Positions 4,074-61,244 of a DNA stretch of 64,000 nucleotides are shown here, piece after piece (within the stretch, counting starts at the first letter, position 1; the number at the start of each line of letters is the position of its first letter). The translations under genes and the position numbers were made by a program. Under the pieces are notes generated by a model. That model ran no database searches. It was not told where the DNA came from and worked only from the letters and a program-made list of their open reading frames with translations. The stretch comes from an uncultured Acidobacteriaceae bacterium (GTDB taxonomy: Bacteria; Acidobacteriota; Terriglobia; Terriglobales; Acidobacteriaceae), in NCBI GenBank assembly GCA_963813205.1, contig CAWEYI010000028.1, positions 1,038-65,037 of the forward strand, read 5' to 3'.

Positions 4074-5099
4074 ATGAAATTCGAAACACGCAATTCGAAA
4101 ACGTATCCGGCGGGTATTCTTCCGCGATTTGCTCTTGCTTTCGCCGCTTTGGGCCTCTGCGGAACCTTCGCGGCAGCCCAATCCAGCACCCAAAAATCTA
4201 CTCCCGCCTCGCCATCCTCTTCGTCCACGCGAGCCAGCGTGAACCCGCCGCAGCCGGGACAACAAACCTTCTCCTCTGCCGAACAGGCGACCCATGCTCT
4301 CATTGCCGCCATTAAGGAAGACGACCAAGCCGCCTTACTCAAAGTGCTGGGACCGACCGGTAAGACCATCGTCTCCTCCGGCGACGATGCCGAAGATAAA
4401 AACGACAGAGATCAGTTCCTGAACAAGTACCAGCAGATGCATCGCCTGGTCATGGAACCGGATGGCACCACCTCCCTCTACATCGGCGCGGAAAACTGGC
4501 CCACGCCCATTCCACTCGTACACAAAGGCAGCTCCTGGTACTTCGATACGGCTGCCGGGAAACAAGAAATTCTTTATCGAAGAGTCGGGAAAAATGAGCT
4601 GGCCGTAATTCAAACTTGCGGTGGACTGGTCGACGCGGAAAAAGAATATTACTCGCAGTCGCATGATGCGCAGAAAGAGCAGGAATACGCTCAGAAATTC
4701 TTCAGCGATCCGGGCAAACAAAATGGCCTGTACTGGGAGACTACTTCCGGTGAGACCAACAGCCCAATCGGTCCCCTGGTCGCGGTGGCCGCCATTGAAG
4801 GTTATCCGCAGCCTCCAGATCGAAACCTGGAGCCGTTTCAGGGTTATTACTTCCGCATCTTGAAAGCCCAGGGAGCCAAAGCCCCGGGCGGCGCACACAG
4901 CTACATCGCCGATGGAAAGATGACCCGCGGTTTCGCCTTCGTTGCGTACCCGGCAGAGTACCGCTCATCCGGCGTTATGACGTTCATCGTAGATCAGGAT
5001 GGAATTGTCTACGAAAAAGATCTCGGCCCCAAAACCGCCGCGATCGCCAAAGCCATGACCAAATACGATCCAGACTCAACCTGGCGCAAAGCGGATTGA
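4074..5099 (+). CDS. DUF2950 family secreted protein
   Basis: Signal peptide. Motifs WPTPIPLVHKGSSWYFD and GYYFRILKAQG...GFAFVAYPAEYRSSGVMTFIV are typical of DUF2950, which commonly follows DUF3300. Confidence 0.85.
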   Translation: MKFETRNSKTYPAGILPRFALAFAALGLCGTFAAAQSSTQKSTPASPSSSSTRASVNPPQPGQQTFSSAEQATHALIAAIKEDDQAALLKVLGPTGKTIVSSGDDAEDKNDRDQFLNKYQQMHRLVMEPDGTTSLYIGAENWPTPIPLVHKGSSWYFDTAAGKQEILYRRVGKNELAVIQTCGGLVDAEKEYYSQSHDAQKEQEYAQKFFSDPGKQNGLYWETTSGETNSPIGPLVAVAAIEGYPQPPDRNLEPFQGYYFRILKAQGAKAPGGAHSYIADGKMTRGFAFVAYPAEYRSSGVMTFIVDQDGIVYEKDLGPKTAAIAKAMTKYDPDSTWRKAD

Positions 5100-5123
5100 G
5101 CTGGATTTAAGCTCGAACTGTCG

Positions 5124-5804
5124 TCAGCGCGGCGGATGCTTGGATTTTGCCTTCAGGCTGATCGCTATCTTTAAAACTGCGCCATCGACGGGATCGATTT
5201 CGAATATTGCTTTGCTCGTGTAGTCCCGGCTACTAAGCCGGTACTTAAAAACGCTATACATCTGAAAGATATCGGTATCGTACGGTGCGCCGTATTTCGC
5301 TTGCACTTGCGCTGCAGTGTAGCTGCGGTCGGCTAGCGCAAGAATGAAGTGCGCGTCCGGGTGCTTCTCGCTCTTAAAAGCCGCGATCTCAGAGAAAGGA
5401 AATCGCTGGCCAGCCAATGAGTAGTCGACCCCTGCCATCGTTTTCTGACGGATGATCTGTTCCTCCACGATCCCGTCGATTCGCTTGTTGACTTCCCCTT
5501 CCAACGCAAATCCCTCGCCTTTTGCCGCGCACCGGCCTTTATCCGGATTGCACTCTGCTCGAATTTCATTCGCAACATAGGAGCGCAGCACCCGGGAGTT
5601 TTCCAGCACCGTTTTAATTCCTTGTTCTCCGGGTAGAGCGGACGCAGAAAAAAGATAGGGAACGATCTCGCGCCAGTCAAAGTCGTCGGCGGAGGAAATT
5701 GTCTGACTACCTGAGCCGGAGGGCTGGGCGCCACCCAACGCGTTACCGGGCGATGAAGCGAAGATCGAGAGCCACACGAGCACCACAAACTTTGAATATT
5801 TCAT
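5124..5804 (-). CDS. Hypothetical secreted protein
   Basis: Internal ATG at 5804 gives MKYSKFVVLVWLSIFASSPG, a signal-like N-terminus. No family recognised. Confidence 0.55.
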   Translation of the reverse strand: MKYSKFVVLVWLSIFASSPGNALGGAQPSGSGSQTISSADDFDWREIVPYLFSASALPGEQGIKTVLENSRVLRSYVANEIRAECNPDKGRCAAKGEGFALEGEVNKRIDGIVEEQIIRQKTMAGVDYSLAGQRFPFSEIAAFKSEKHPDAHFILALADRSYTAAQVQAKYGAPYDTDIFQMYSVFKYRLSSRDYTSKAIFEIDPVDGAVLKIAISLKAKSKHPPR

Positions 5805-8736: not shown

Positions 8737-8826
8737 TGGCGGAGAGGGTGGGATTTGAACCCACGATACCCGTTAAGGTATGTCCGCTTTCGAGGCGGAT
8801 CGTTTCAACCACTCACGCACCTCTCC
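8737..8826 (-). tRNA. tRNA-Ser (anticodon CGA), CCA encoded
   Basis: The reverse complement folds as a cloverleaf: acceptor GGAGAGG/CCTCTCC, anticodon stem CCGC/GCGG with loop CUCGAAA, long variable arm, T-arm GTGGGTTCAAATCCCAC, 3' GCCA. Confidence 0.9.
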
Positions 8827-8877: not shown

Positions 8878-9327
8878 TCAGCGGCGGCTTCTAAAAAATT
8901 CCTGCAAAACCTCCGCGCCACGCCCCGCCAGCACTCCCCCGCGAACTTCGATGCGGTGATTTAATTCAGGATGTTCCAGCAGCTTCATCACCGACCGAAC
9001 TGCGCCCGCTTTCGGATCGTCTGCGCCGTAAATCAGGCGTTTGATCCGCGCATGCACCATCGCGCCCGTGCACATCGCGCACGGCTCAATTGTAACAAAC
9101 AGGTCACACTCAGCTAGGCGATGGTTTCCTACGGCTGCACCCGCCTCGCGCAGCGCAACAATCTCCGCATGAGCGCTTGGATCGCAATCTGTAATGTTCC
9201 GGTTCCATCCCCGGCCAATGATGCGTCCTCCGCATACCACCACTGCCCCAACCGGAACTTCGCCCGTCTCCAGCGCGCGCTGCGCTGACCGCAAAGCCTC
9301 TTCCATCCAAAGCTCGTCGTTGCTCAT
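8878..9327 (-). CDS. tadA: tRNA adenosine(34) deaminase
   Basis: CDA-fold zinc motifs HAEIVALREAG and PCAMCTGAM. 149 aa, typical size. Confidence 0.9.
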   Translation of the reverse strand: MSNDELWMEEALRSAQRALETGEVPVGAVVVCGGRIIGRGWNRNITDCDPSAHAEIVALREAGAAVGNHRLAECDLFVTIEPCAMCTGAMVHARIKRLIYGADDPKAGAVRSVMKLLEHPELNHRIEVRGGVLAGRGAEVLQEFFRSRR

Positions 9328-9613: not shown

Positions 9614-9743
9614 AACATCCTCTGTGCTTAACTACGCGCACGCACCCGCGAAAGTTCCCCAAATTTCTTCACTTACTTGAACCGGGGCGAAATGCCAGGG
9701 TGCCCTATGTCTCGCTGCCTTAGCGAGACATGGGTACAGCGAG

Positions 9744-12437: not shown

Positions 12438-13589
12438 TCAGAACGACAGCTCACCCACCGCCGGCTGCTGTTGGGTCATACAATGCATGGTGCCGAGCCC
12501 CCACACGAGATCACCAGAATAAATGGGGACAATTTCACGCGTCGGGAAGAGCTCCGCCAGAGTGTGGAGCGCAACCCGGTCGTTAGGATCGTTGAACACC
12601 GGCACAAGAACAATTCCATTCGCAATATAGAAATTAGCGTAGCTCGCGGGCAGTCGTCGCTGCTCGAACACGGCCGGGCCGGGCATGGGAAGCTCAACAA
12701 TGTTCAGCGGCTTGCCCGCCTGATCGCGCGCAGCCCGGAGTCGCGCAAGATTATCGCGCAGCGGTTTGTGGTTCACATCTCGCGGATTATTCTCCACCAC
12801 CGTGACCACGGTGTCAGCGGCAACAAAGCGTGTGAGGTCATCGACGTGGCCATGCGTGTCATCGCCAAAAATGCCGCGCCCCAGCCAAATCACATGCGGT
12901 GCGCCCAGGTAGTCTGCGAACATTTTCTCGTAATCTTTCCGACCCATTCCCGGATTCCGCTGCTGCACCTTGCTAAGCAGACATTCTTCGGTAGTGAGCA
13001 ACGTGCCCAGACCATTCACATCGATCGATCCGCCCTCGAGCACGACACGTCGATCGTGGCACAGCGGACGAATTTCCTGAGTCGCGGCAGCGTCTGCCAT
13101 CAAGCTGCCAATTTTTTCATCATGCCGCCAGTTAGAGTACTTAGCCCAAGCGTTGAAGCGAAATTTCATGGCGATCACTTTGCCTGCCGGGTGGCCCATC
13201 CTAGCCGCGTTCTTTGCGGCTAGGGTGGGGAACTGAGTCGGAGTCAAGAATACACAGCCGGAGTCGCGCATCCATACTCGATTCGTCGGCCATCGATGAA
13301 AACAAACATTTGCCAGCGCCGTGCTAGCCTTCTCCAGCAGCTTGCGAACTTTGCGCTCCGCCGCGGCATCATTGACGACCAACTCCACCCGCTCATGCCG
13401 GGCCAGATTGCGAATGATCTCGGTATAAACCCACGGAATCGGCTCAAACTTTCCCGGCCAATCCCCGTGATAATGCGGCCACGCCAGCCAGGTCGCGGTA
13501 TGCGGCTCCCATTCAGCCGGCATGCGGTAGCGGAGGGTTGCCGGGGCGGAATCCAAAGCATTACCTGAAGAAATCGATCGGGGCATCAA
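12438..13589 (-). CDS. aguA: Agmatine deiminase
   Basis: MPAEWEPHTATWLAWPH, VWMRDSG, C-terminal GTMHCMTQQQP (catalytic Cys). Carries an in-frame hairpin element at 13189-13230. Confidence 0.9.
   Translation of the reverse strand: MMPRSISSGNALDSAPATLRYRMPAEWEPHTATWLAWPHYHGDWPGKFEPIPWVYTEIIRNLARHERVELVVNDAAAERKVRKLLEKASTALANVCFHRWPTNRVWMRDSGCVFLTPTQFPTLAAKNAARMGHPAGKVIAMKFRFNAWAKYSNWRHDEKIGSLMADAAATQEIRPLCHDRRVVLEGGSIDVNGLGTLLTTEECLLSKVQQRNPGMGRKDYEKMFADYLGAPHVIWLGRGIFGDDTHGHVDDLTRFVAADTVVTVVENNPRDVNHKPLRDNLARLRAARDQAGKPLNIVELPMPGPAVFEQRRLPASYANFYIANGIVLVPVFNDPNDRVALHTLAELFPTREIVPIYSGDLVWGLGTMHCMTQQQPAVGELSF
13189..13230 (-). repeat. REP-like hairpin element inside the aguA coding sequence (in frame)
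   Basis: Coding strand CCACCCTAGCCGC-AAAGAAC-GCGGCTAGGATGG-GCCACCC (13-bp stem, one G-U pair), encoding FPTLAAKNAARMGHP. Same architecture as the REPs that flank the RAYT genes. Confidence 0.7.
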
Positions 13590-47491: not shown

Positions 47492-47516
47492 AATTCGTTC
47501 GATCCTCGGCACCGCC

Positions 47517-47554
47517 GGGTGCCCCACCCTTGCGCGTTCTTGCGCAGGGTGGGG
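47517..47554. repeat. REP-like hairpin (intergenic, between ileS and the CuA gene)
   Basis: GGGTGCCCCACCCTTGCGC-GTTCTT-GCGCAGGGTGGGG. Confidence 0.7.
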
Positions 47555-47599
47555 ATTTTGACGTCCGCTCCAGCCCCCACACTGCGAGGTTTCAAACCT

Positions 47600-50530
47600 T
47601 CAACGGCCGCCGCCAATCCCTTTCAACACCACGCTGCACCGCTCACACACCGTCGGATAATCCTTATCCTCGCCCACATGCGTCGAATAATTCCAACAGC
47701 GCTCGCACTTGGCTCCATCCGCTTTTTTCACTTCCACATGCACCCCGCCCGTGCCATTGCCCGAGCCTTGCGCCAGCGTAACCGCCGAAACTATAAATAA
47801 ATAGCGCAACTGATCTGCATGTCGCGACAACACAGAATAAACCGGATCGGCGGCTCCGATAATTACCTGCGCCTCCAACCCCGTACCGATCAACTTATTA
47901 TTGCGCGCCTCTTCCAGCGCCTTGAGCACTTCGTCGCGCACCGCGCGCAGCGTTGTCCAATCATCGCCGCCGCCGTCCTTCACCGAACTCTCACCCAGGA
48001 TTTCCTCTGCCGACGGAAATAATTCCAGATGCACACTTGGTTTACCCCCTTCGATCTTCGGCAAATAATCCCAAACTTCTTCCGAAGTAAAACTCATGAT
48101 CGGCGCCAGCAATCGCACCAGCGCTTCGCCAATCCTCCAGATCGCCGTCTGCGCGCTGCGCCGTGCCTGAGATTTCGGCGCAGAAATATAAAGCCGATCC
48201 TTGAGCACATCAAAATAAAACGCGCTCAAATCCACAATGCAAAAGTGATTCAGCCGGTGATAAATCCTGTGAAATGCGAACTCCTTGTAAGACGCCCGCA
48301 CCTCATCGGCAAACGCCAATGTCTGCCGCAGCATGTACTGATCCAGCCCTTCCATGCTCTCGAACCGAACCGCATCCGTCTCCGGATTAAAATCTCCCAG
48401 ATTGCCCAGCACATAACGGAACGTATTGCGAATCTTCCGATAATTTTCCGCGATGCGCAGCATCAGCTTCTCCGACCCCACCACATCCTCGCGAAAATCA
48501 ACCGACGCTACCCACAACCGCACCACTTCCGCGCCCAGCCGGTCCGAAATATCCACCGGATCAACGTCGTTCCCGCGCGACTTCGACATGGCCTGGCCCT
48601 TTTCATCCAGCGTCCATCCCGGCGTCACCACTTCTTTATACGGAGGCGTTCCCCGCGTCCCCATCCCGCACAGCAGTGACGACTGAAACCACCCGCGGTA
48701 TTGATCCCCACCTTCTAGATACAAATCAGAGGGCCAAGGATACGTTGGCTCGTCGGAAATCAACGCCAGATAGCTCGCGCCCGATTCCAGCCACACATCA
48801 AAAATGTCCGTCTCTTTCTCAAACTTGGTCGCGCCGCAATGCTGGCACTTTGCACTCGCCGGAAGAATCGAGTTCGATTCCGGCGTAAACCAAGCATCCG
48901 CTCCTGAGCGCGCAAACAACTCCACCACTTTCCGATTCACAGCCGGATCATTCAACGGCTTGCCGCAACTCTCGCAAAGAAACACGGCGATCGGAACGCC
49001 CCACACCCGCTGCCGCGAAATGCACCAATCCGGCCGCGTCGCGATCATGTTCGACATCCGCTCTTCGCCCCACGCCGGGTCCCATTTCACATACTTGATG
49101 TCTTCCAGCGTGCGTTTGCGCAACGTGTCTTCTTCCGACTTCCCGCCCGGCATCGGCGTCTCCATCGAAATAAACCACTGCTCCGTCGCCCGAAAAATTA
49201 TCGGATTATGACACCGCCAGCAATGCGGATAAGAATGCTCCGTCTTCTCCGTATGCAGCAGCGCCCCGCGCTTCTTCAGCAATTCGATGATCGGCTGGTT
49301 CGCATCCCAAACGCGCAGCCCGGCGTACTCCGCCAGTCCGTTACGCAGAATGCCTTTCTCGTCCACATTGCTGGTCGCGTCCAGTCCATACTTCACACCG
49401 GTAATAAAGTCTTCCGCGCCGTGCGAAGGCGCCGTATGCACCACTCCGGTCCCGGTATCCATGGTGACGTACTCCGCCAGCACGCCGAGAATCTTCCGAT
49501 CCAGAAATGGATGCTGAAAATTCAGCCGCTCCATCTTGCGTCCAGGAAAACGCGCAATCTCCCGCGCATCCGCCAGCCCGCACTTCTCCGCCACATCCTT
49601 CGCCAGCTTCGCCGCGACGATGAAAACTTCACTATCTGGGGTGCCCCACGTCTCGCTTCCTTTGCGAGACATGGGAACTTCTAATCCCACATACTCTTCA
49701 TCCGGATGAAACGCCACCGCCATCGACGCCGGCAGCGTCCACGGAGTAGTCGTCCAGATAATGGTCGAAACTTTTTTTCCCGCCAGCGCCGCATCAATCT
49801 TCCCCGGATCATCCAGCAGCGCGTACTTCACATAAACCGTCGGGCTGGTGTGATTCTCATACTCAACCTCGGCCTCGGCCAGCGCCGTCTCGTCATGCAT
49901 GCACCAGTAAACCGCGCGCAGCCCCTTGTAGACGAATCCATTCTCGTAAAACGAAAAGAAAGTCGACAGCACCACCGACTCATACTGCGGATTCATCGTC
50001 GCGTACGGACGATCAAATCTCCCAAAAACTCCAATCCGCTTGAATTGCTGCCGTTGCAAATCCAAAAACTTCTGCGCATACTTCCGGCATTCCGCGCGTA
50101 CGTCGAGCGGCCGCATCTGCAACTTCTTCCCGCCCAGCTCCTTATCCACCTTGATTTCAATCGGCAACCCATGGCAATCCCACCCTGGCACATACGGCGC
50201 ATCAAATCCCGCCATCGTCTTCGATTTGACGATGAAATCTTTCAAACACTTATTCAGCGCCGTCCCCATATGGATGGGCCCGCTGGTATAAGGCGGCCCA
50301 TCGTGCAGAATGTAAGTCGGCGATCCCTTGCGCGCCTCCCGGATGCGCTCGTAGATCCGCGCCTCCTCCCACCGGGCCAGCATTTTCGGCTCATTCTGCG
50401 GCAGATTGGCCTTCATCGGAAAGGCGGTTTTAGGCAGATTAATCGTGGATTTCAGTTCGAGCGGCACTCTTTCGGCTTCTCCCAATGCGTGAATCTCTTC
50501 ATTATAGGGAGCGTCGCCGCGAACGTCCAT
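47600..50530 (-). CDS. ileS: Isoleucine--tRNA ligase
   Basis: PYTSGPIHMGTALNK (HIGH), AMSKSRGN (KMSKS), C-terminal zinc fingers CERCW...CERC. Start set at ATG 50530 (MDVRGD...LPKTAFPMKANLPQNEP), because upstream codons run through a repeat. Confidence 0.92.
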   Translation of the reverse strand: MDVRGDAPYNEEIHALGEAERVPLELKSTINLPKTAFPMKANLPQNEPKMLARWEEARIYERIREARKGSPTYILHDGPPYTSGPIHMGTALNKCLKDFIVKSKTMAGFDAPYVPGWDCHGLPIEIKVDKELGGKKLQMRPLDVRAECRKYAQKFLDLQRQQFKRIGVFGRFDRPYATMNPQYESVVLSTFFSFYENGFVYKGLRAVYWCMHDETALAEAEVEYENHTSPTVYVKYALLDDPGKIDAALAGKKVSTIIWTTTPWTLPASMAVAFHPDEEYVGLEVPMSRKGSETWGTPDSEVFIVAAKLAKDVAEKCGLADAREIARFPGRKMERLNFQHPFLDRKILGVLAEYVTMDTGTGVVHTAPSHGAEDFITGVKYGLDATSNVDEKGILRNGLAEYAGLRVWDANQPIIELLKKRGALLHTEKTEHSYPHCWRCHNPIIFRATEQWFISMETPMPGGKSEEDTLRKRTLEDIKYVKWDPAWGEERMSNMIATRPDWCISRQRVWGVPIAVFLCESCGKPLNDPAVNRKVVELFARSGADAWFTPESNSILPASAKCQHCGATKFEKETDIFDVWLESGASYLALISDEPTYPWPSDLYLEGGDQYRGWFQSSLLCGMGTRGTPPYKEVVTPGWTLDEKGQAMSKSRGNDVDPVDISDRLGAEVVRLWVASVDFREDVVGSEKLMLRIAENYRKIRNTFRYVLGNLGDFNPETDAVRFESMEGLDQYMLRQTLAFADEVRASYKEFAFHRIYHRLNHFCIVDLSAFYFDVLKDRLYISAPKSQARRSAQTAIWRIGEALVRLLAPIMSFTSEEVWDYLPKIEGGKPSVHLELFPSAEEILGESSVKDGGGDDWTTLRAVRDEVLKALEEARNNKLIGTGLEAQVIIGAADPVYSVLSRHADQLRYLFIVSAVTLAQGSGNGTGGVHVEVKKADGAKCERCWNYSTHVGEDKDYPTVCERCSVVLKGIGGGR
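49638..49675 (-). repeat. REP-like hairpin element inside the ileS coding sequence (in frame)
   Basis: Coding strand CCCATGTCTCGC-AAAGGAA-GCGAGACGTGGG-GCACCCC, encoding PMSRKGSETWGTP. Confidence 0.7.
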
Positions 50531-50552
50531 GAACCCCCACTCCTGAAGCTTT

Positions 50553-50585
50553 ACCCCGTGCACCCCTGTGACCTCCGTGTTAAAG
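50553..50585. repeat. Family C repeat copy (partial), upstream of ileS
   Basis: CCCCGTGCACCCCTGTGACCTCCGTGTTAAAG. Confidence 0.45.
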
Positions 50586-50825
50586 ATTTTGATTTCCCTT
50601 TCCAGCACCCCCCGAAATACACTTCGTAAACTACCCAAAGAAGAGGTACAATTTTCCAAACAGGCAAATGGACGTTAACCTTTGCCCAGTGCGGTCGCTA
50701 AATTCCACAACGAGCCGTAGCCTTACAGGCAACTCGCTGGAAAGACTCTTCATCTGTGTTGAGCAGGGCGTCGGGCCGAGCGCAGTGCACTCACCGTCCG
50801 ACCTGGGAAAGCCGAATCGGGGAAC

Positions 50826-53139: not shown

Positions 53140-53326
53140 ATTGTCATTCCGACCGGAGCCCGAGCGTCGGCGAGGGCGCAGTGGAGGAACCGCTGTTAGC
53201 CGGCTCGACCGAGTTGCTTGTATGAAGGCCGAAGAGAATTGCTCGCAGGAAGGCTCGCACAACCGTGGACGAGCGGCGCTTTAGCGCCGCGCAACTGCAA
53301 GAAAAATGCGGGGGCTTCAGCCCCCC
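53140..53326. repeat. Composite repeat copy 3 (A head plus B tail), overlaps the last codons of the ABC-DtxR ORF
   Basis: TTGTCATTCCGACCGGAGCCCGAGCGTCGGCGAGGGCGCAGTGGAGGAAC ... CACAACCGTGGACGAGCGGCGCTTTAGCGCCGCG ... GGGGCTTCAGCCCCC. Confidence 0.75.
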
Positions 53327-54600
53327 AGAGTTCTCGAACGCTCCCCGCGCACGGAACTCGTAGTCGCCGCAAACTCTGAACCCGCGCAACACCCCCCCGG
53401 CGGGATCGGCGCCCCATGCGGGCAAGTCCGCGGATGTCCCAAAAACGCGCAAATCTTATCAGTAGCCTCGGGCGACAAAATATGCTCAAACTTGCAAGCC
53501 TGCTGCTCAATTTCCGATTCGCTATCCATCGCCAGACTATCGGTAAACAGCCGCTCCGCCAATCGATGCCGTCGGATAATGCTTCCCGCCCGTTCACGCC
53601 CGCGCTCCGTGAGCTCCACAATCAAAGTTCCATCGCCCAGCGAAGCCGAAACAGGTTTCAACGCATCGTGGCAAGGATTCACAAAAGGCTTGTGTCCATG
53701 CGCCAGCGGAGGATGCGGAGCCGAAACCACCAGCCCCATCTGCATCATCTTCTCAATCGCCAGGCTCACCGGCAGCGCTCCGTGCACCTCCATGCGCTCC
53801 ACTTCTGCGATCTCGCCGTGCTCGCCCAGCACCCACAACTCCTCGAGCACTTCATCGAACTGCTCTTCATCGGCCATCGCAAATACTTCCTGCGATTCGA
53901 TCTTGCCGTGATGAAATTCAATGCGCCGATCGGCCAGCCGCGCCACTACGGGGTCATGCGTGACCATCACAATCGTGCGTCCTTGCTGATGAAACTCACG
54001 CAGTAGCCGCAGCACAATTTCTTCATTCACCGCATCCAGATTGCCTGTCGGCTCATCCGCCAGAATAATCTTCGGATCATTAATCAAAGCCCGCGCAATG
54101 CAAACCCTCTGCTGCTCACCACCCGAAAGTTGCGACGGCAAGTGATGCGCCCGATCGCCCAGTCCCACCCGGGCCAGCGCCTCACTCGCTTCTTTCTCAT
54201 CCGTCATGCTGTGAAAATACTGCGCCAGCATCACGTTCTCCACCGCCGTGAGAAAAGGAATCAGATGAAACTGCTGAAAAATAAATCCAATCTTCTCCGA
54301 CCGGACGCGATTCAGTTCGGCAGCAGAAATCCCCGCCACGTTCTGCCCATCCAGCCAGATCTCCCCCGAGGTCGGCCGATCCAGGCATCCAATCAAATTC
54401 ACCAGCGTCGATTTCCCCGACCCCGACGGCCCCATAATCGAAAGCCATTCTCCCTGCGCCACATGCAGTGAAATATGATCCAGCGCACGAATTGCATCAC
54501 TGGGGGTGCCCCACTTCTCGCTCCTTTTGCGAGAAGTGGGATCATGCGCAGCCGAAGCCTTACCTGGGTAGAGCTTGGTCACGTCTTTGATCTGTATCAT
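53317..54600 (-). CDS. ABC transporter ATP-binding protein (MacB/LolD-like) fused to a DtxR/MntR-type metalloregulator module
   Basis: Residues 1-240: Walker [10 protein letters not shown], signature LSGGEQQR, Walker [13 protein letters not shown]-loop VTHD. From residue about 242: [22 protein letters not shown]... then [27 protein letters not shown]...[36 protein letters not shown], the DtxR-family dimerisation and metal-binding signature. Confidence 0.8.
54502..54540 (-). repeat. REP-like hairpin element inside the ABC ATPase coding sequence (in frame)
   Basis: Coding strand CCCACTTCTCGC-AAAAGGA-GCGAGAAGTGGG-GCACCCCC (perfect 12-bp stem), encoding [13 protein letters not shown] between beta-strands 1 and 2 of the NBD. 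Confidence 0.7.
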
Positions 54601-54601
54601 T

Positions 54602-55741
54602 TCAATCTCCCCGCAAAATAACCGCCGGCTGCACTCGCCGCAACATGGAAATCGGCAGGATCGCCGCCAGCAAAGTGACCGCTATGCTACCAGCCAGAAT
54701 AAAAGGTAAAACACTAAATCGTGGAGCCACCGATGCATGGAAATTTACCCTTCCAATCCATGCCGCAATCCCGATGCCCAAAACAAATCCGATCACCGCC
54801 CCGGTCGCGCCCAGCGCCGCCGCCTCTGCGGCAAAGAATCCATTTAGCATCCCATCCGATGCGCCTAGCGCCTTCAAAATAGCAAAGTCTCGCCGGCGGT
54901 CAAATACCCATCCCATCAACGTTGAGAGTACGCACAGCGCCGCAGTCAAAATAATCAGCGCCGCTGTTACCAGCAGCGTCGCCCGCGTCTTGCCCAGCAC
55001 CCGCGCTTCGCCCTCCATAATCTGCCGCACCGGACGCACCTCCGCCGCCGGAATCGCACTTTGCAGTTGCTGCAGAATCGCGCCGATCTCCTCCGGCGAT
55101 CCGCTCGCCGCAACTTCAATCGTCGAAGGTTGCACTCCAGTCCAGGCAACGAAATCCGCGAGTGAAACATACACCCGGCTGTCTTCCGCCGCGCCTGTCT
55201 CCACCTTGCCCGCAGGTGTCAGCAGAATCTTATGTCCCTGAAACTTAAGATCGAAATTTTGATTCTTCGGCGACACCACCGCGAGCGCCCGAACTCCCAC
55301 CAGTGCCTGCTGCGGACCCGAAGGCCACTGGCTCACCGACCACCAATGATCCAACTGCCGCACCCGCCCAAAGTCCGTTCCCGCCACCACCACCGATTCT
55401 CCGGCATCGGTTCGCGCCACCACCAGCCCGAACGGAGCCACCACCCCACGGTTCCCGAGAACCGATTCCACCTGCGCCAAAGCGTCAGCGGGAAGGGAAC
55501 CGCCGTCCTTTCCTACTACAACAATATTCGCTCCATAGTTGCGGAATTCCCGCCGCAACTTGGCCTGCACATCGACATAAAGATTCAACACGGCAGTTGC
55601 TACCGCAGCCGCTACCACCATGGCAAACAGCGCTGAGAGCGCCCGTCCCCGCCGCAGCACCGCCGCCCGCACCAGCATACGCATCAACATCGACGTATGC
55701 GGAGATCCCTTCCGCCTCGACGCTACTTCCCGCGCATTCAC
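54602..55741 (-). CDS. ABC transporter permease, FtsX/MacB-like
   Basis: N-terminal TM, large periplasmic domain, C-terminal 3-TM FtsX module (DFAILKALGASDG...). GTGA overlap with the upstream stop. Alternative start at ATG 55690. Confidence 0.8.
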   Translation of the reverse strand: MNAREVASRRKGSPHTSMLMRMLVRAAVLRRGRALSALFAMVVAAAVATAVLNLYVDVQAKLRREFRNYGANIVVVGKDGGSLPADALAQVESVLGNRGVVAPFGLVVARTDAGESVVVAGTDFGRVRQLDHWWSVSQWPSGPQQALVGVRALAVVSPKNQNFDLKFQGHKILLTPAGKVETGAAEDSRVYVSLADFVAWTGVQPSTIEVAASGSPEEIGAILQQLQSAIPAAEVRPVRQIMEGEARVLGKTRATLLVTAALIILTAALCVLSTLMGWVFDRRRDFAILKALGASDGMLNGFFAAEAAALGATGAVIGFVLGIGIAAWIGRVNFHASVAPRFSVLPFILAGSIAVTLLAAILPISMLRRVQPAVILRGD

Positions 55742-57002
55742 AACTCACCCCGCAGCGCAAACACCGGATCCATTCCCACCGCCTTGCGAATCGCCGCCGC
55801 ACTCCCCGCAAATGTGACGATCACCGCGATCACCAGAATTACCGGCAACAGCACCGGCGCAATCGTAATCTCTGAACCAAAAATCGATCTTCCAATCTCA
55901 TGCGCCAGCATTCCGCCAGCCGCAAATCCCACCGCTCCCCCAAGCAACGCCAGCAGTGTCGCCTCGGCAAAAAAGATCGACGCAACCGCAAACCTTCCCG
56001 CGCCCAGAGCCTTCATCAAACCCACTTCTGACCGCCGCTCAAAAATCGCCGTAGCCATCGCCGCCGAAACCGCCAGCGCCGAAGCAAACAGCGCAGCCAG
56101 CGTCACTAAAAAGATGAGACCCTCGATGCGCGTCAGCACCGCGCCCTCATTCTGCGCAACTTGCCGAATCTGCTCCGCATGCGAATTCGGAATCGCCTCC
56201 TGCAACTGAAACGCAATCGACTGCGGATAAGGCGAGCAGTACCACCGGTCATAAATCGCGCCCGATAAACTCTTGGGATCACGTCGTGCCAACGCATCTT
56301 CCGGCTTCGTCAGCGCGCTCACATAAACGCGCTTCACCGCGCCCGGCCTTCCCAGAATTTCCTGCGCCAGCGCAATCGACCCCACCACTTGATCGTCCTC
56401 GCTGCCTCCAGTGGAAAGAATTCCACTCACCCTTAACCGCCGACCGTCTAGCGTAATCTCATCTCCCGCTCGCTCCGAAAGCCGCGCCGCCAGCCGCTCT
56501 CCCAGCAACACATCGCGGGACGAATCCTCCGGCCACGCCCCGGAAACTTTCCACCAGGGGTCAGTCGACCGCACCCCAGTCGTAAATTCTTCTTTGCCAA
56601 AAGAAATCTGCTTGGCGAAGTAAGTGCCAAGCAGCGTAACGTCCTCGGTTTTTCCATCGCGCTCGAGCCAGCCTGCACCGGCAACATCGGAGCAAATCCC
56701 GTAATGTTGTTGTGCCAGAACGTGCCTTTGATTTTGGGCAGATCGGCTTCGTTCAGAAAAGCGCCATCGCTCGGCGGCTTCAAATTCACTCCGCCAATTT
56801 CCACATCCAGCGTATCTTCCTGCGGGGTTACAAGTATGTTCGCGCCAATGGTGCGCAGCTCGTGATTCATCTTGTCGCCAATATCGGTTGCGACTCCAAT
56901 CATCGCCGTCGCTACCGTTACCCCCAGCGTGATCGCCGCGCCCGCCAGCAATTTGCGCCGCTTCTGGCGCCGGAACGATTCGTAGACGAGCCGTACGAAC
57001 AT
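55738..57002 (-). pseudogene. ABC transporter permease, FtsX/MacB-like, frameshift near 56670
   Basis: N-terminus MFVRLVYESFRRQKRRKLLAGAAITLGV...NITGFAPMLPV is in ORF 56448..57002. The continuation (A)GWLERDGKTEDVTLLGTYFAK... to the FtsX C-terminus EVGLMKALGAGR... is in the frame of ORF 55738..58257. The span length is 3n+2. Confidence 0.8.
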
Positions 57003-57005
57003 TCC

Positions 57006-58257
57006 TTATTGTTTCTCGAACACGCGGCTGCCCGCCGCAATGTCCGCCTCCTGAATCACCACCGAATCCGCCGTCTCCGTCGCCTTCAACGGAATCGGAT
57101 TGCATCCGCCCGTCGTCCCCACCGATTGCGCCATTGATCGGCGCGGCGCAATTCTTGCAAACAATCCGGTTGCCGGATTTGTAAAAGCCCACCGCCCCGC
57201 AAATCTGGCAAGCATCAAACACCGTCGCAATTTTCCCGTCCGGCTTCTGATACAGCCAGAAACGCACCTCAACCCCATTCTCCTTCGCCTGATAGCGATG
57301 CAAATCTCCATCGGAAACCTTCGCCAACGGAATCGTCACTTTGCCATTCACAAAGCTGACTTCCGTCGCTGGCGACAGCGCGCTCTGGCTCTTGGCATAA
57401 ACAAACTCCGCCGTCAGCATCGCGATAAACATAAAAGAGAACACATACACCGACCCCATCCACAACCGCTCCCGCCGCGCCGACCAAGCTGCCTTGCGTC
57501 TCTCCGCCGGAGAAACCGCATCCGGCAAGGGCTGCCGCCGCTTGGCGTCAAACAAAATCATCAATGCCGCAAGCGCCAGAATCGTGACAAAGAAGAAAAG
57601 ATCATTCCGCACGATCGGCCCAATGATCGACATCTCCGCCTTCGAAGAGGGAAGCACTCCGCTCTCCGAAAGTTCGTGCAACCCAGCAATCACCAACTGC
57701 ACCGCAACCAGGATCAGAATCGCGCTCGTAACCCGGAAAAACTTTTGCAGATTAATCCGCACGCTGCCCTTCACAAACATCACGCCAAAAGCAATCGCGC
57801 ATCCCACGCCCAACAGCGTTCCCAGAAAACTCATCAGCTCGGAGGAATTCAGCGTCACTGCCGAGAGAATAAGCACCGTCTCCGCGCCCTCGCGCAGCAC
57901 CATCAGAAACACAAAAAAGAAAAGCCCAATCCAAGCGTCATTCCCCGCCAGCAGTCCAACTTTGCCCTCAATCTGCCCCTTCAGTTTCCGCCCCGTCTTC
58001 ATCATGAAAATAACCATGGTGACGACGAAGAAGGCGGCCACCAGCATCACCCAGCCCTCAAAAACGTCTTCGTTCAAATTCAGCCGCGAGAGCAGAATGG
58101 CAACCCCGATGCTGCTCACAAAAGCCGCCACCAGCGCGGCATACACCGCCTTGCGCAAATCGTTGCGCCCAATCTTCGCCAGATAGGCCAGAGTGATACC
58201 CACGATCAGCGCAGCCTCAACCCCCTCGCGCAGCGTAATAATGAATGCCTGAAGCAT
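57006..58257 (-). pseudogene. FTR1-family iron permease fused to a DUF2318 Cys-rich membrane domain, frameshift near 57132
   Basis: Two REXXE motifs (REGVEAAL, REGAETVL). After a further TM helix comes CQICGAVGFYKSGNRIVCKNCAAPIN. The end ...AQSVGTTGGCNPIPLKATETADSVVIQEADIAAGSRVFEKQ* is in the frame of ORF 57006..57311. Confidence 0.75.
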
Positions 58258-58292: not shown

Positions 58293-58465
58293 ATTTCAAC
58301 TTCAAGGATATGCCGTCTGCGCCGGAGGCGTCAATCCGTTCCGTCACAAGCCAGCGTGATCGGCATCACACGGCGAAAATATGGATTAAACGGAGTTTTC
58401 GGAGACGTCAATCAGGCGGGTGACCCATCCTTCTCTGTATTTGTTCTTTCCCGCTCCTGAACAGT

Positions 58466-58512
58466 GGGTGCCCCGTCCTTGCGTTGTTTGCAAGGGCGGG
58501 TACGATGCTGCC
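58466..58512 (+). repeat. REP (RAYT-associated) copy
   Basis: GGGTGCCCCGTCCTTGCG-TTGTTT-GCAAGGGCGGGTACGATGCTGCC directly upstream of RAYT copy 1. Confidence 0.8.
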
Positions 58513-58530: not shown

Positions 58531-58911
58531 ATGCCTAGCGGCCTGCATCGCACCTACGGCGCTCATCACCTGCACTTTGTCACTTGTTCCTGCTACCAGC
58601 GCTTGCCGTTTTTCAACACCGCCCGCAGCCGCGACCGCTTCCTCTCGGTTCTGGAACAGACCCGCCAGCGTTATCGGTTTGTGGCCGTCGGCTACGTCGT
58701 TATGCCAGAGCACATCCATCTTCTTCTGAGTGAGCCCGAGGTGGGAAATCCCTCTACGGTGATGCAAGTGTTGAAGCAGCGCACCGCCTGGGCCTTACTG
58801 CCGAAGAGCAAGCGGAAGGACCCGCGCCAGCGGAATCTGTTTGCCAGGGAGCCGCAACGCAGGGCCTTCTGGCAGGCACGCTTTTACGACCTTAACGTGT
58901 GGACCAGGTAG
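58531..58911 (+). pseudogene. REP-associated tyrosine transposase (RAYT, IS200/Y1-type), 3'-truncated copy
   Basis: MPSGLHRTYGAHHLHFVTCSCYQRLPFF...VMPEHIHLLL (HUH) ...FWQARFYDLNVWTR*. Lacks the segment with the catalytic Tyr that is present in copy 2. Confidence 0.75.
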
Positions 58912-59098: not shown

Positions 59099-59189
59099 GC
59101 TACCGCTCTTTCCGCCCTCCGCTGCTCGTAGGCTTCCCAGAGGGCAACTAAATCCTGTACGCTCCACAGCCGATCCGTGACGCCAGGAC

Positions 59190-59226
59190 GGGTGGCCCAC
59201 CCTTGCGCACGTTGCAAGCGGGCGGG
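59190..59226 (+). repeat. REP variant
   Basis: GGGTGGCCCACCCTTGCGCACGTTGCAAGCGGGCGGG. Confidence 0.6.
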
Positions 59227-59273
59227 CGGCTCGCCCTTTCTAATCTGTTTTTTTCTTCCCATTTCGAGACTGT

Positions 59274-59320
59274 GGGTGCCCCGTCCTTGCGTTTTATGCA
59301 AGGGCGGGTACGATGCTGCC
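59274..59320 (+). repeat. REP copy, 5' flank of the intact RAYT
   Basis: GGGTGCCCCGTCCTTGCG-TTTTAT-GCAAGGGCGGGTACGATGCTGCC. Confidence 0.8.
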
Positions 59321-59336
59321 AATACCATGGGCTGTT

Positions 59337-59891
59337 ATGCCCAGCGGTCTGCATCGCACATACGGGGCGCACCACCTGCACTTTATCACTTGTTCCTGCT
59401 ATCGGCGATTGCCTCTGCTGAATTCTGCACGAGCTCGGGACCGCCTCCTATCGATTCTTGAGCAGACTCGCCAACGCTACCGCTTCGTCGTGGTCGGGTA
59501 TGTGGTGATGCCGGAGCATATTCATCTGCTGATGACCGAGCCGGAGGTGGGCAACCCTTCCACAGTCATGCAAGTGCTCAAGCAGCGCACGGCGCGGGCG
59601 TTGTTGCCGAAGAGAAAGCGGCGCGATCCGCGGCAACTAACTCTGTTCGCGGACGGAGCCGGCCATCGGGCTTTCTGGCAGGCACGCTTCTACGACTTCA
59701 ACGTTTGGACAACGAAGAAGCGAGTGGAAAAGCTGAGGTACATGCATCGCAATCCCGTGAAACGGCGACTGGTGGAGTCGCCCGAGCAATGGCGATGGAG
59801 CAGTTACCGGTTCTATTTGCTAGGAGAGGCCGGAGCGGTGCGGGTGAACGTGGGGTGGTCGGAGATCTCGTTTCGGAATCGAGTTGCTTGA
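59337..59891 (+). CDS. REP-associated tyrosine transposase (RAYT), apparently intact
   Basis: 184 aa from ATG 59337. HUH motif MPEHIHLLM. C-terminal helix with Tyr: VEKLRYMHRNPVKRRLV. Flanked by inverted REPs. Confidence 0.85.
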   Translation: MPSGLHRTYGAHHLHFITCSCYRRLPLLNSARARDRLLSILEQTRQRYRFVVVGYVVMPEHIHLLMTEPEVGNPSTVMQVLKQRTARALLPKRKRRDPRQLTLFADGAGHRAFWQARFYDFNVWTTKKRVEKLRYMHRNPVKRRLVESPEQWRWSSYRFYLLGEAGAVRVNVGWSEISFRNRVA

Positions 59892-59921
59892 AGGTGTCTC
59901 GGGACAAAACCTCAAGATTTC

Positions 59922-59968
59922 GGCAGCATCGTACCCGCCCTTGCAAAAAACGCAAGGACGGGGCACCC
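59922..59968 (-). repeat. REP copy in inverted orientation, 3' flank of the intact RAYT
   Basis: GGCAGCATCGTACCCGCCCTTGC-AAAAAA-CGCAAGGACGGGGCACCC is the reverse complement of the 59274-59320 type. Confidence 0.8.
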
Positions 59969-60002
59969 CGCTGTATTGCTGGTGTTAGCGAAATCAAAGG
60001 CT

Positions 60003-60376
60003 GGGCCACCCGCCCGCTCGGCGATGATCGCATCCAGCCCGCGCGTCACTCTGCGGCTGGCGAAACTGGTATCCACTTCCAGCGCCAGACACTCTCGCAT
60101 AAAGGCGTCGACCACGCTCAGCACCCGGATCGTTCGCCCGCACTCCACCGCGTCGTGCACGAAATCCAACGCCCACTCCTCGTTCGCCGAAGTCCGCGCC
60201 AGCAGCGGCTTTCCCTCGCGTACGCAATGCTTCCGTTTCTTCCGTCGGATCATCAACCCCGCCTCGCGATACACCCGATGTACGCGCTTGTGATTCACTT
60301 TCTCTCCCGTGCGCCCCAGCAATACATGCAGTCGCCGATACCCGAAGCGCGGCTTCTTCCGTGCCAAGTCCACCAA
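60003..60376 (-). pseudogene. IS3-family transposase (OrfB/integrase core) internal fragment
   Basis: KPRFGYRRLHVLLGRTGEKVNHKRVHRVYREAGLMIRRKKRKH...NEEWALDFVHDAVECGRTIRVLSVVDAFMRECLALEVDTSF. Truncated at both ends by REP sequences. Confidence 0.75.
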
Positions 60377-60394: not shown

Positions 60395-60438
60395 GTCGTA
60401 CCCGCCCTTCGTACAGAACGCGAAGGACAGGGCACCCC
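60395..60438 (-). repeat. REP variant (inverted orientation)
   Basis: GTCGTACCCGCCCTTCG-TACAGAA-CGCGAAGGACAGGGCACCC. Confidence 0.65.
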
Positions 60439-60461
60439 ATATATCGCAAACGCCAACGAGT

Positions 60462-60868: not shown

Positions 60869-60952
60869 CGAATACAACCTCCAGCCTAACGATCTACCAG
60901 GCGGGTGGCTCGCCCTTTCTAATCTGTTTTTTTCTTCCCATTTCGAGACTGT

Positions 60953-60999
60953 GGGTGCCCCGTCCTTGCGTTTTATGCAAGGGCGGGTACGATGCTGCC
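60953..60999 (+). repeat. REP copy upstream of RAYT copy 3
   Basis: Identical to 59274-59320. Part of a 330-bp duplication (59221-59549 vs 60900-61229). Confidence 0.8.
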
Positions 61000-61015
61000 A
61001 ATACCATGGGCTGTT

Positions 61016-61229
61016 ATGCCCAGCGGTCTGCATCGCACATACGGGGGCGCACCACCTGCACTTTATCACTTGTTCCTGCTATCGGCGATTGCCTCTGCTG
61101 AATTCTGCACGAGCTCGGGACCGCCTCCTATCGATTCTTGAGCAGACTCGCCAACGCTACCGCTTCGTCGTGGTCGGGTATGTGGTGATGTCGGAGCATA
61201 TTCATCTGCTGATGACCGAGCCGGAGGTG
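61016..61229 (+). pseudogene. RAYT copy 3: frameshifted (extra G near 61045) and truncated after the HUH motif
   Basis: Near-identical to 59337-59549. Similarity ends abruptly after CCGGAGGTG at 61229, 15 nt before the IS inverted repeat. Confidence 0.75.
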
Positions 61230-61244
61230 AGGAATCTGGGGACA

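Follow-up and report, generated by a model that had tools for sequence, protein, structure and literature searches.

Palindromic elements of Rickettsia (Rickettsia palindromic elements, RPEs; Ogata et al. 2000, cited in PMC3733652) reportedly lie in frame in essential genes, where they are translated, occupy surface loops of the proteins and decay to an extent that depends on the lineage; their host is an obligate intracellular bacterium of reduced genome, and no dedicated transposase is known near them. Here we describe a comparable insertion in a 64,000-nucleotide (nt) stretch of DNA (the window) from an uncultured Acidobacteriaceae bacterium (assembly GCA_963813205.1, contig CAWEYI010000028.1, positions 1,038-65,037 of the forward strand), in which a 39-nt repetitive extragenic palindrome (REP) lies in frame within ileS, the gene for isoleucine-tRNA ligase (IleRS). 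The unit is much shorter than RPE-1, which is about 100-150 nt (30-50 residues).

REPs within genes have been described in other bacteria, and the present case reveals no new type of system. Di Nocera, De Gregorio and Rocco (2013, BMC Genomics 14:522, PMC3733652) catalogued GTAG and CGTC REPs within genes of several species, including tRNA synthetase genes of Xanthomonas oryzae, Erythrobacter litoralis and Sphingopyxis alaskensis as well as DNA-repair genes; these copies add roughly 10-30 residues and are viewed as probably neutral insertions in loops or linkers. The same paper links RPE-4 and RPE-6 of Rickettsia to CGTC REPs and reports GTGG and GTRG tag variants, while the string GTGC is absent from it. 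Like those REPs, the elements studied here are short hairpins, mostly intergenic with a minority wholly within open reading frames (ORFs), and are associated with REP-associated tyrosine transposases (RAYTs) in 'REPtrons'. They differ in their host, an uncultured acidobacterium of the Ca. Sulfotelmatobacter group, in their GTGC/GTGG tag and long 12-bp stem, and in that one insertion can be traced across orthologs in differing states of decay.

The E. coli REP/TnpA-REP system (Messing et al. 2012, PMC3479197; structure 4ER8) shares with this family a homolog of Y1/HUH transposases, inverted REP hairpins on either side of its gene, a conserved tetranucleotide that adjoins the hairpin foot on the 5' side, and an imperfect stem with a strand-biased G-T wobble. 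Here, however, the tetranucleotide is GTGC rather than GTAG, so that under the guide-pairing model the cleavage dinucleotide would differ from CT, and the window RAYT resembles the E. coli enzyme, its best match among solved structures (4ER8, E = 8e-7), only remotely. E. coli REPs are not known to be translated. A further likeness is to the REP doublets known as REPINs (Bertels and Rainey 2011, PMC3116915), which are likewise non-autonomous, RAYT-dependent, vertically inherited and persistent in a lineage. REPINs, however, are inverted doublets described as extragenic, whereas the copies in ileS and in two other genes of the window, encoding an ABC ATPase and an agmatine deiminase, are intragenic singlets and fall outside the definition of a REPIN.

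A REP unit within the ileS coding sequence

The gene and the parts of the unit are as follows.

47600-50530, minus strand: ileS, isoleucine-tRNA ligase (TIGR00392, 870 bits against a cutoff of 621)
49637-49675, minus strand: REP unit, 39 nt or 13 codons (PMSRKGSETWGTP); covariance-model match at 49636-49679
49678-49676, minus strand: GTT preceding the unit
49675-49664, minus strand: 5' arm CCCATGTCTCGC
49663-49657, minus strand: loop AAAGGAA (7 nt)
49656-49645, minus strand: 3' arm GCGAGACGTGGG, forming 12 pairs, one of them G-U
49644-49639, minus strand: tag GCACCC, followed by CA

The ileS ORF is open from 47600 to 50659, with its stop at 47600 and an uncertain start codon, likely near 50530. 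A TonB_C gene lies divergently upstream, as it also does at the ortholog locus L121. The coding strand from 49678 to 49631 reads GTT CCCATGTCTCGC AAAGGAA GCGAGACGTGGG GCACCC CA GAT AGT, and the translation of this region is ...EYVGLE-VPMSRKGSETWGTPDS-EVFIVAAKL. On re-reading the coding strand, we found the sequence, the coordinates and the 12-bp stem with its single G-U pair as an earlier note on this DNA had given them. The unit has the size and shape of a REP, that is, a short (20-40 nt) imperfect palindrome with a stem-loop. Folded as RNA, the hairpin reaches -24.1 kcal/mol, compared with -11.2 +/- 2.5 kcal/mol for 200 dinucleotide shuffles (z = -5.1), none of which folded as well.

The ileS segment belongs to a REP family that is abundant in Ca. 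Sulfotelmatobacter and related Acidobacteriaceae. A search for the ileS-type pattern CCCNNNTCTCGC-N7-GCGAGANNNNGGGCACCC over one genome per GTDB species returned at least 120 stretches, nearly all of them labelled Ca. Sulfotelmatobacter, Acidobacteriaceae or Terriglobales. Because a mixed alignment of all window copies placed the 11-bp stems of the RAYT-associated type one column out of register, we used a covariance model (R1) trained on 20 copies from other genomes and on no window sequence, and scored the whole window with filters off; since the training copies are all foreign, each match in the window is an independent test. The ileS copy scores 60.4 bits (E = 3.7e-14) and is one of about 12 copies in the window. 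No family in an Rfam search matches the element, and a mismatch search with the 12-mer GGGGTGCCCCAC was uninformative (9 matches, 5.1 expected).

In the protein, the segment is lineage-specific. Among 118 close IleRS orthologs that cover the region, 117 are without the REP peptide, and most of these show E-SGG-EVYIV at the position of E-VPMSRKGSETWGTPDS-EVFIV in the window IleRS; the remaining one (P0006) carries a shorter, degenerate insert at the same place. Alignment with the solved IleRS structures 8C9E/F/G and 1FFY opens a 13-residue gap exactly at the insert point. At the DNA level, comparison with the insert-free L121 shows TCG GGC GGA replaced by a 48-nt segment, a net gain of 39 nt. 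The insert thus lies wholly within a conserved gene, is a multiple of three nt long, contains no stop and is absent from these orthologs. On the simplest reading, the 39-nt unit (CCC...GCACCC-CA) would have landed in a turn of three codons, between what are now GTT and GAT AGT, with boundaries that would split a V-D-S turn between V and D. The 13 additional residues would then be translated and harmless, with LEVPMSR and GSETWGTPDSEVFIVAAK as the predicted peptides spanning the insert junctions.

We placed the insert in the fold using an AlphaFold2 model of the N-terminal 463 residues. Its mean predicted local distance difference test score (pLDDT) is 57; truncation of the Rossmann fold leaves the model poor outside the CP1 editing domain, and we relied on CP1 alone. 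Within CP1 the model is confident, with neighbouring blocks above pLDDT 90, and the insert residues 286-300 form a coil of pLDDT about 50 between strands 279-285 and 301-306. The model thus puts the insert in a surface loop at the tip of a CP1 beta-hairpin. The earlier note had expected a lineage-specific segment located in a surface loop, and both the ortholog alignment and the predicted structure agree with it.

The same codon is also occupied elsewhere. We searched JGI metagenomes for insert-bearing ileS genes through the degenerate junction pattern HPDEEYV[AG]LEVP and kept 10 of the 12 matches; the two rejected candidates (L128 and L129), distant IleRS genes of high GC content, have a native 'EVP' turn that is short and contains no REP. 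The ten acidobacterial contigs carry an insert at the same codon, in eight distinct versions. The predicted stability of orthologous inserts at this codon ranges from -23.9 to -11.3 kcal/mol: L130 (-23.6 kcal/mol) and L123 (-20.7 kcal/mol) stand towards one end, and L124, L131 and L126 (-11 to -15 kcal/mol) towards the other. The insert peptides are highly variable, and the flanking residues are nearly invariant. When the window's insert is counted with the eight metagenomic ones, the length of 48 nt is kept in 6 of 9 and a near-perfect stem in three or four. The insert is not a recent private event: several related lineages carry it at this codon, often with a decayed hairpin. Such decay argues against the 'strong mRNA hairpin' of the earlier note as a maintained function.

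Some of these inserts have been altered further. In L122 and L125 a second repeat (LRQAQGKL) is nested within the REP, and a related longer peptide, SETLRQAQG..., occurs in the ABC ATPase orthologs P0201, P0211 and P0231. L127 carries a tandem QDQDKDKD expansion directly 3' of the REP, which suggests slippage beside the hairpin.

The RAYT genes and the structure of the family

Five further copies of the family lie at 58.4-61.0 kb, around three RAYT genes.

58463-58504, minus strand: REP upstream of a C-terminally truncated RAYT (33.4 bits)
About 58531-58911: truncated RAYT copy (Pfam Y1_Tnp, 42.5 bits)
59271-59312, minus strand: REP upstream of the intact RAYT, CCCGCCCTTGC stem subfamily (27.2 bits, E = 2.3e-5)
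59337-59891, plus strand: intact RAYT, 184 aa (NCBIfam NF047646, 107 bits against a cutoff of 80; Pfam Y1_Tnp)
59930-59971, plus strand: REP on the downstream side of the intact RAYT, in opposite orientation to the upstream copy (34.5 bits, E = 2.7e-7)
60397-60440, plus strand: REP bordering an IS3-type transposase fragment (24.4 bits, E = 1.3e-4)
60950-60991, minus strand: REP upstream of the third RAYT copy (27.2 bits)
About 61016-61229: third RAYT copy, frameshifted and truncated

The inverted REPs that bracket the intact RAYT give it the layout of a REPtron. With the HUH motif and the catalytic Tyr defined as in PMC3479197, the enzyme has the HUH motif H-I-H, which aligns with H59-M60-H61 of 4ER8, and a Tyr in RYMHRNP; Y143 aligns with Y115 of that structure. 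The RAYT-flanking repeats end in the GGG-GCACCC of the ileS copy, and the earlier note had recognised the shared GCACCC tail. The covariance model finds all five of them (24.4-34.5 bits, E = 2.7e-7 to 1.3e-4), and these E-values put the likeness well beyond chance.

The link that the note drew from the ileS unit to the RAYTs at 58-61 kb holds for the family, which is RAYT-associated, but not for those particular genes: they carry the CCCGCCCTTGC stem subfamily and not the ileS-type stem, and a RAYT with ileS-type repeats was found only at the GTDB locus L014. There a RAYT at 4509-5024 (103 bits on NF047646, 55% identical to the window RAYT) is enclosed by two ileS-type REPs in inverted orientation, at 4102-4138 and 5108-5144, so that the ileS-type unit has a REPtron of its own in the lineage.

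The family as a whole has two features expected of REPs, namely many copies per lineage and subfamilies that differ by paired changes in the stem. Figures for foreign copies, here and below (133 evaluable copies, about 135 stems), refer to copies among the matches listed from the pattern search. In these, stem positions 4-6 vary as pairs (ACT/AGT, AGG/CCT, ATG/CAT, ACG/CGT and GCT/AGC). On the opposite strand, the hairpin foot of every copy is immediately preceded by GTGC (by GTGG in the window copies at 13.2 kb and 59.2 kb), in the position of the classical GTAG guide tetranucleotide of REPs. In about 80 of the roughly 135 foreign stems the GCACCC strand has C·A at stem position 5, equivalent to a G·T wobble when the GTGC strand is read, and the hairpin is thus strand-biased, as in other REPs. 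The window ileS copy reverses this bias, with its G·U on the mRNA strand.

Three RAYT copies lie within 3 kb, the middle one alone being intact, and the segments 59230-59560 and 60900-61230 are near-identical; the third RAYT copy has an extra G, which causes the frameshift, and is then cut off. The IS3-type transposase fragment (59912-60376, minus strand, HTH_21 and partial rve) is bracketed by the REPs at 59930-59971 and 60397-60440, consistent with REPs acting as targets of insertion sequences or as recombination sites.

REP copies in other genes

Outside ileS and the RAYT region, the window contains the following copies and host genes.

9695-9738, minus strand: intergenic REP upstream of a ferredoxin gene (46.8 bits, E = 1.5e-10)
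12438-13589: agmatine deiminase gene
13186-13233, minus strand: diverged REP in the agmatine deiminase gene, encoding FPTLAAKNAARMGHP (15.3 bits, E = 0.03, a weak match)
47514-47557, minus strand: extragenic REP CCCACCCTGCGC-aagaac-GCGCAAGGGTGGG-GCACCC (21.9 bits, E = 5.8e-4)
53317-54600: ABC ATPase fused to a DtxR-type C-terminal domain (Pfam ABC_tran and Fe_dep_repr_C)
54501-54544, minus strand: REP in the ABC ATPase gene, in frame at codons ~21-33 (60.2 bits, E = 4.3e-14)
59187-59230, minus strand: degenerate REP with the CCACCC tag of the agmatine-deiminase copy (14 bits, E = 0.07, a weak match)

The intergenic copy at 9.7 kb has the 5' arm CCCATGTCTCGC, identical to that of the ileS copy. 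The agmatine-deiminase copy has a 14-bp stem and a CCACCC tag, and its product includes the peptide AAKNAARMGHP. The covariance scan of the window found no second inverted unit in the coding sequence flanking the ileS, ABC ATPase or agmatine-deiminase copies, all of which are singlets. The copy at 47514-47557, previously unnoticed, lies about 45 nt past the ileS stop and before a COX2-domain gene; ileS thus has one REP within the gene and another in its 3' region.

We assigned foreign copies to coding or non-coding sequence with a codon log-odds classifier trained on long ORFs of foreign REP loci, which requires 60 open codons on each side of a copy. By this measure 123 of the 133 evaluable copies lie outside long coding ORFs and 10 inside, an intragenic fraction of about 8% that is a lower bound because the classifier misses copies near gene starts, such as the one in the ABC ATPase. 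The family is therefore predominantly extragenic, like other REPs, and the ileS copy is one exception. The earlier note's view that REP/RAYT systems are normally extragenic fits this count, but it overlooked the intragenic REPs catalogued in PMC3733652 and so overstated the novelty of the ileS insertion. We checked nine of the ten intragenic ORFs, and all nine are genuine genes whose Pfam domains surround or span the insert.

Hosts 1-5: short-chain dehydrogenase (SDR), threonyl-tRNA synthetase, SMC, family-2 glycosyltransferase (GT2), class-V aminotransferase
Hosts 6-9: PD40 protein, P-type ATPase, amino-acid permease, E1 dehydrogenase

Across all ten ORFs the copies use five frames and both strands (S0 in one, S1 in two, S2 in two, A1 in two and A2 in three). 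The ABC ATPase and agmatine-deiminase copies are, as the earlier note said, stop-free and in frame, and they share their frame relative to the element with the ileS copy; the extension of this agreement in frame and orientation to a rule for the family fails, since the five frames in foreign genes mean that the frame which the three window copies have in common is not intrinsic to the element. Its broader proposal that the REP family colonises coding sequence in this lineage is borne out by the other genes with in-frame, presumably translated copies.

Two of the loops occupied in the window are hot spots. The ABC ATPase loop is hypervariable; at least 15 of 120 orthologs contain a peptide recognisable as REP-derived, and one ortholog (P0130) carries the ileS peptide itself, PMSRKGSETWGT. 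In the agmatine deiminase, the loop between WMRDSG and FNAWAKY has a base state of 29 residues with no insert, seen in 5 of 120 orthologs (P0241-P0360); AAKNAARMGHP is common to the window and eight of these orthologs, and most of the others carry peptides of other repeats, of the GRLSPH type (42), the REGHDF type (40), the EPALSL type (24) and the FDSAQG type (6). In related genomes several palindromic repeat families have filled this loop, encoding GFARPDSRGRLSPH, DREGHDFSRA...ALAPEG, SPFDSAQGKLG and EPALSLPKG. At one extreme, L134 (1001-2224) has a 98-residue loop whose DNA is a succession of palindromes (294 nt, -140 kcal/mol); L135 (1001-2023) shows the 29-residue state, without palindromes.

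Two further features of the window may be mentioned. The ABC ATPase-Fe_dep_repr_C gene shares an apparent operon (53317-58257) with genes for an FtsX permease and for a fusion of FTR1, FtrD and MacB/FtsX; the arrangement resembles an iron-uptake module. A tRNA gene (8740-8826, minus strand), the only Rfam match at the gathering threshold in the window, adjoins a gene for a tRNA-adenosine/cytidine deaminase-like protein (8878-9327).

Origin and significance of the ileS insert

We consider it about 85% probable that the ileS segment is a tolerated in-frame REP insertion, presumably arising through single-strand transposition of the RAYT type and now under nearly neutral evolution, at a permissive turn within the editing domain of IleRS. 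One 39-nt unit would have been inserted at the 3-residue turn of the CP1 beta-hairpin, with a RAYT as the probable catalyst. Because the length is a multiple of three, no in-frame stop is introduced and the turn is solvent-exposed, the gene would have stayed functional and the unit would be translated as 13 extra residues. Purifying selection would filter such selfish or neutral DNA, with in-frame copies in permissive loops as the survivors, and the insert most likely has no function of its own. Several points weigh against this account. The 64-kb window contains no RAYT with an ileS-type flanking stem, the local RAYTs being of another subfamily; the tag reads GTGC, or GTGG in two copies, instead of the canonical GTAG, so that recognition by a RAYT is presumed; and the ileS copy is a singlet, while REPIN doublets are thought to be the mobile unit. 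Translation of the insert is likewise deduced from its reading frame. The exact retention of 48 nt in most lineages, together with three or four intact hairpins, could reflect some constraint, and the branching order of the ileS tree could accommodate a single ancient insertion, recombination or recurrence.

That the palindrome arose by chance, is a native part of the IleRS loop or is an assembly artefact has nothing in its favour except the shortness of the element, and is already refuted by the E-value from a model trained on other genomes, by the fold z-score, by the presence of the same insert in independent JGI metagenome contigs and by the intact, syntenic ileS gene. Co-option of the insert deserves more attention, although we regard it as improbable. 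Here selection would keep the insert because the hairpin slows ribosomes for CP1 folding or stabilises the transcript, or because the loop modifies editing or tRNA contacts. The strength of the ileS hairpin and the persistence of both the 48-nt length and the near-perfect stems among the distinct inserts would fit such a role, as would a C-G to G-C exchange in the stem of L124 and L131 that looks compensatory. Yet the insert is missing from 117 of the 118 close orthologs and from all solved IleRS structures, several orthologous inserts have lost most of their pairing or have been split by a nested element, the peptide is highly variable, and the same REP family occurs in unrelated genes in any frame.

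A more serious alternative, which we still hold to be unlikely, is that the window copy was acquired separately, either because a favoured target within the turn was hit more than once or because short-patch recombination brought it in from a relative that bears the insert. In a neighbour-joining tree of IleRS, built from 521 ungapped columns with 100 bootstraps, the seven other insert-bearing sequences cluster and the window's gene falls among insert-free ones, of which P0013 is nearest at 8.8% distance. The tract TTAGAAGTT...GAAGTTTTCATCGTCGC around the insert is common to the window and L132, and further downstream the window gene resembles the insert-free L121; repeated hits of the agmatine-deiminase and ABC ATPase loops by different repeat families also make recurrence plausible. 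The junctions, however, are alike in all inserts (GTY before and a Gly/Asp-Ser codon pair after), which favours one event, and the tree nodes concerned have bootstrap values below 50%, at which one insertion, recurrence and short-patch recombination are inseparable. The database IleRS matches (P0001-P0120) are nearly all 400-800 residues long even on long contigs, and many may be partial as stored or called; their shortness limits the tree to the 521 shared columns.

A tolerated REP insertion in ileS would extend translated REP insertions to the Acidobacteriota and to a REP family with an unusual GTGC tag. The orthologous inserts also provide a natural series for the decay of a selfish hairpin in an essential gene, from intact to eroded, once with a nested second element and once with an adjacent tandem expansion. 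A bolder and doubtful extension is that Ca. Sulfotelmatobacter and its relatives might be a free-living, large-genome counterpart of Rickettsia, in which unrelated palindromic families routinely colonise enzyme loops, as in the growth of the agmatine-deiminase loop from 29 to 98 residues through nested palindromes, and in which RAYT-type single-strand chemistry would both insert units and seamlessly excise them at the same codon, giving the patchy presence in ileS. If so, REPs would be a recurrent, reversible source of loop variation in essential genes rather than rare frozen accidents. For proteins of these abundant peat and soil bacteria, the findings call for caution in annotation and modelling, since low-complexity loop peptides such as PxSRKxxEKWGTP, GRLSPH, REGHDFSRA and FDSAQGKL derive from repeats and are not functional motifs.

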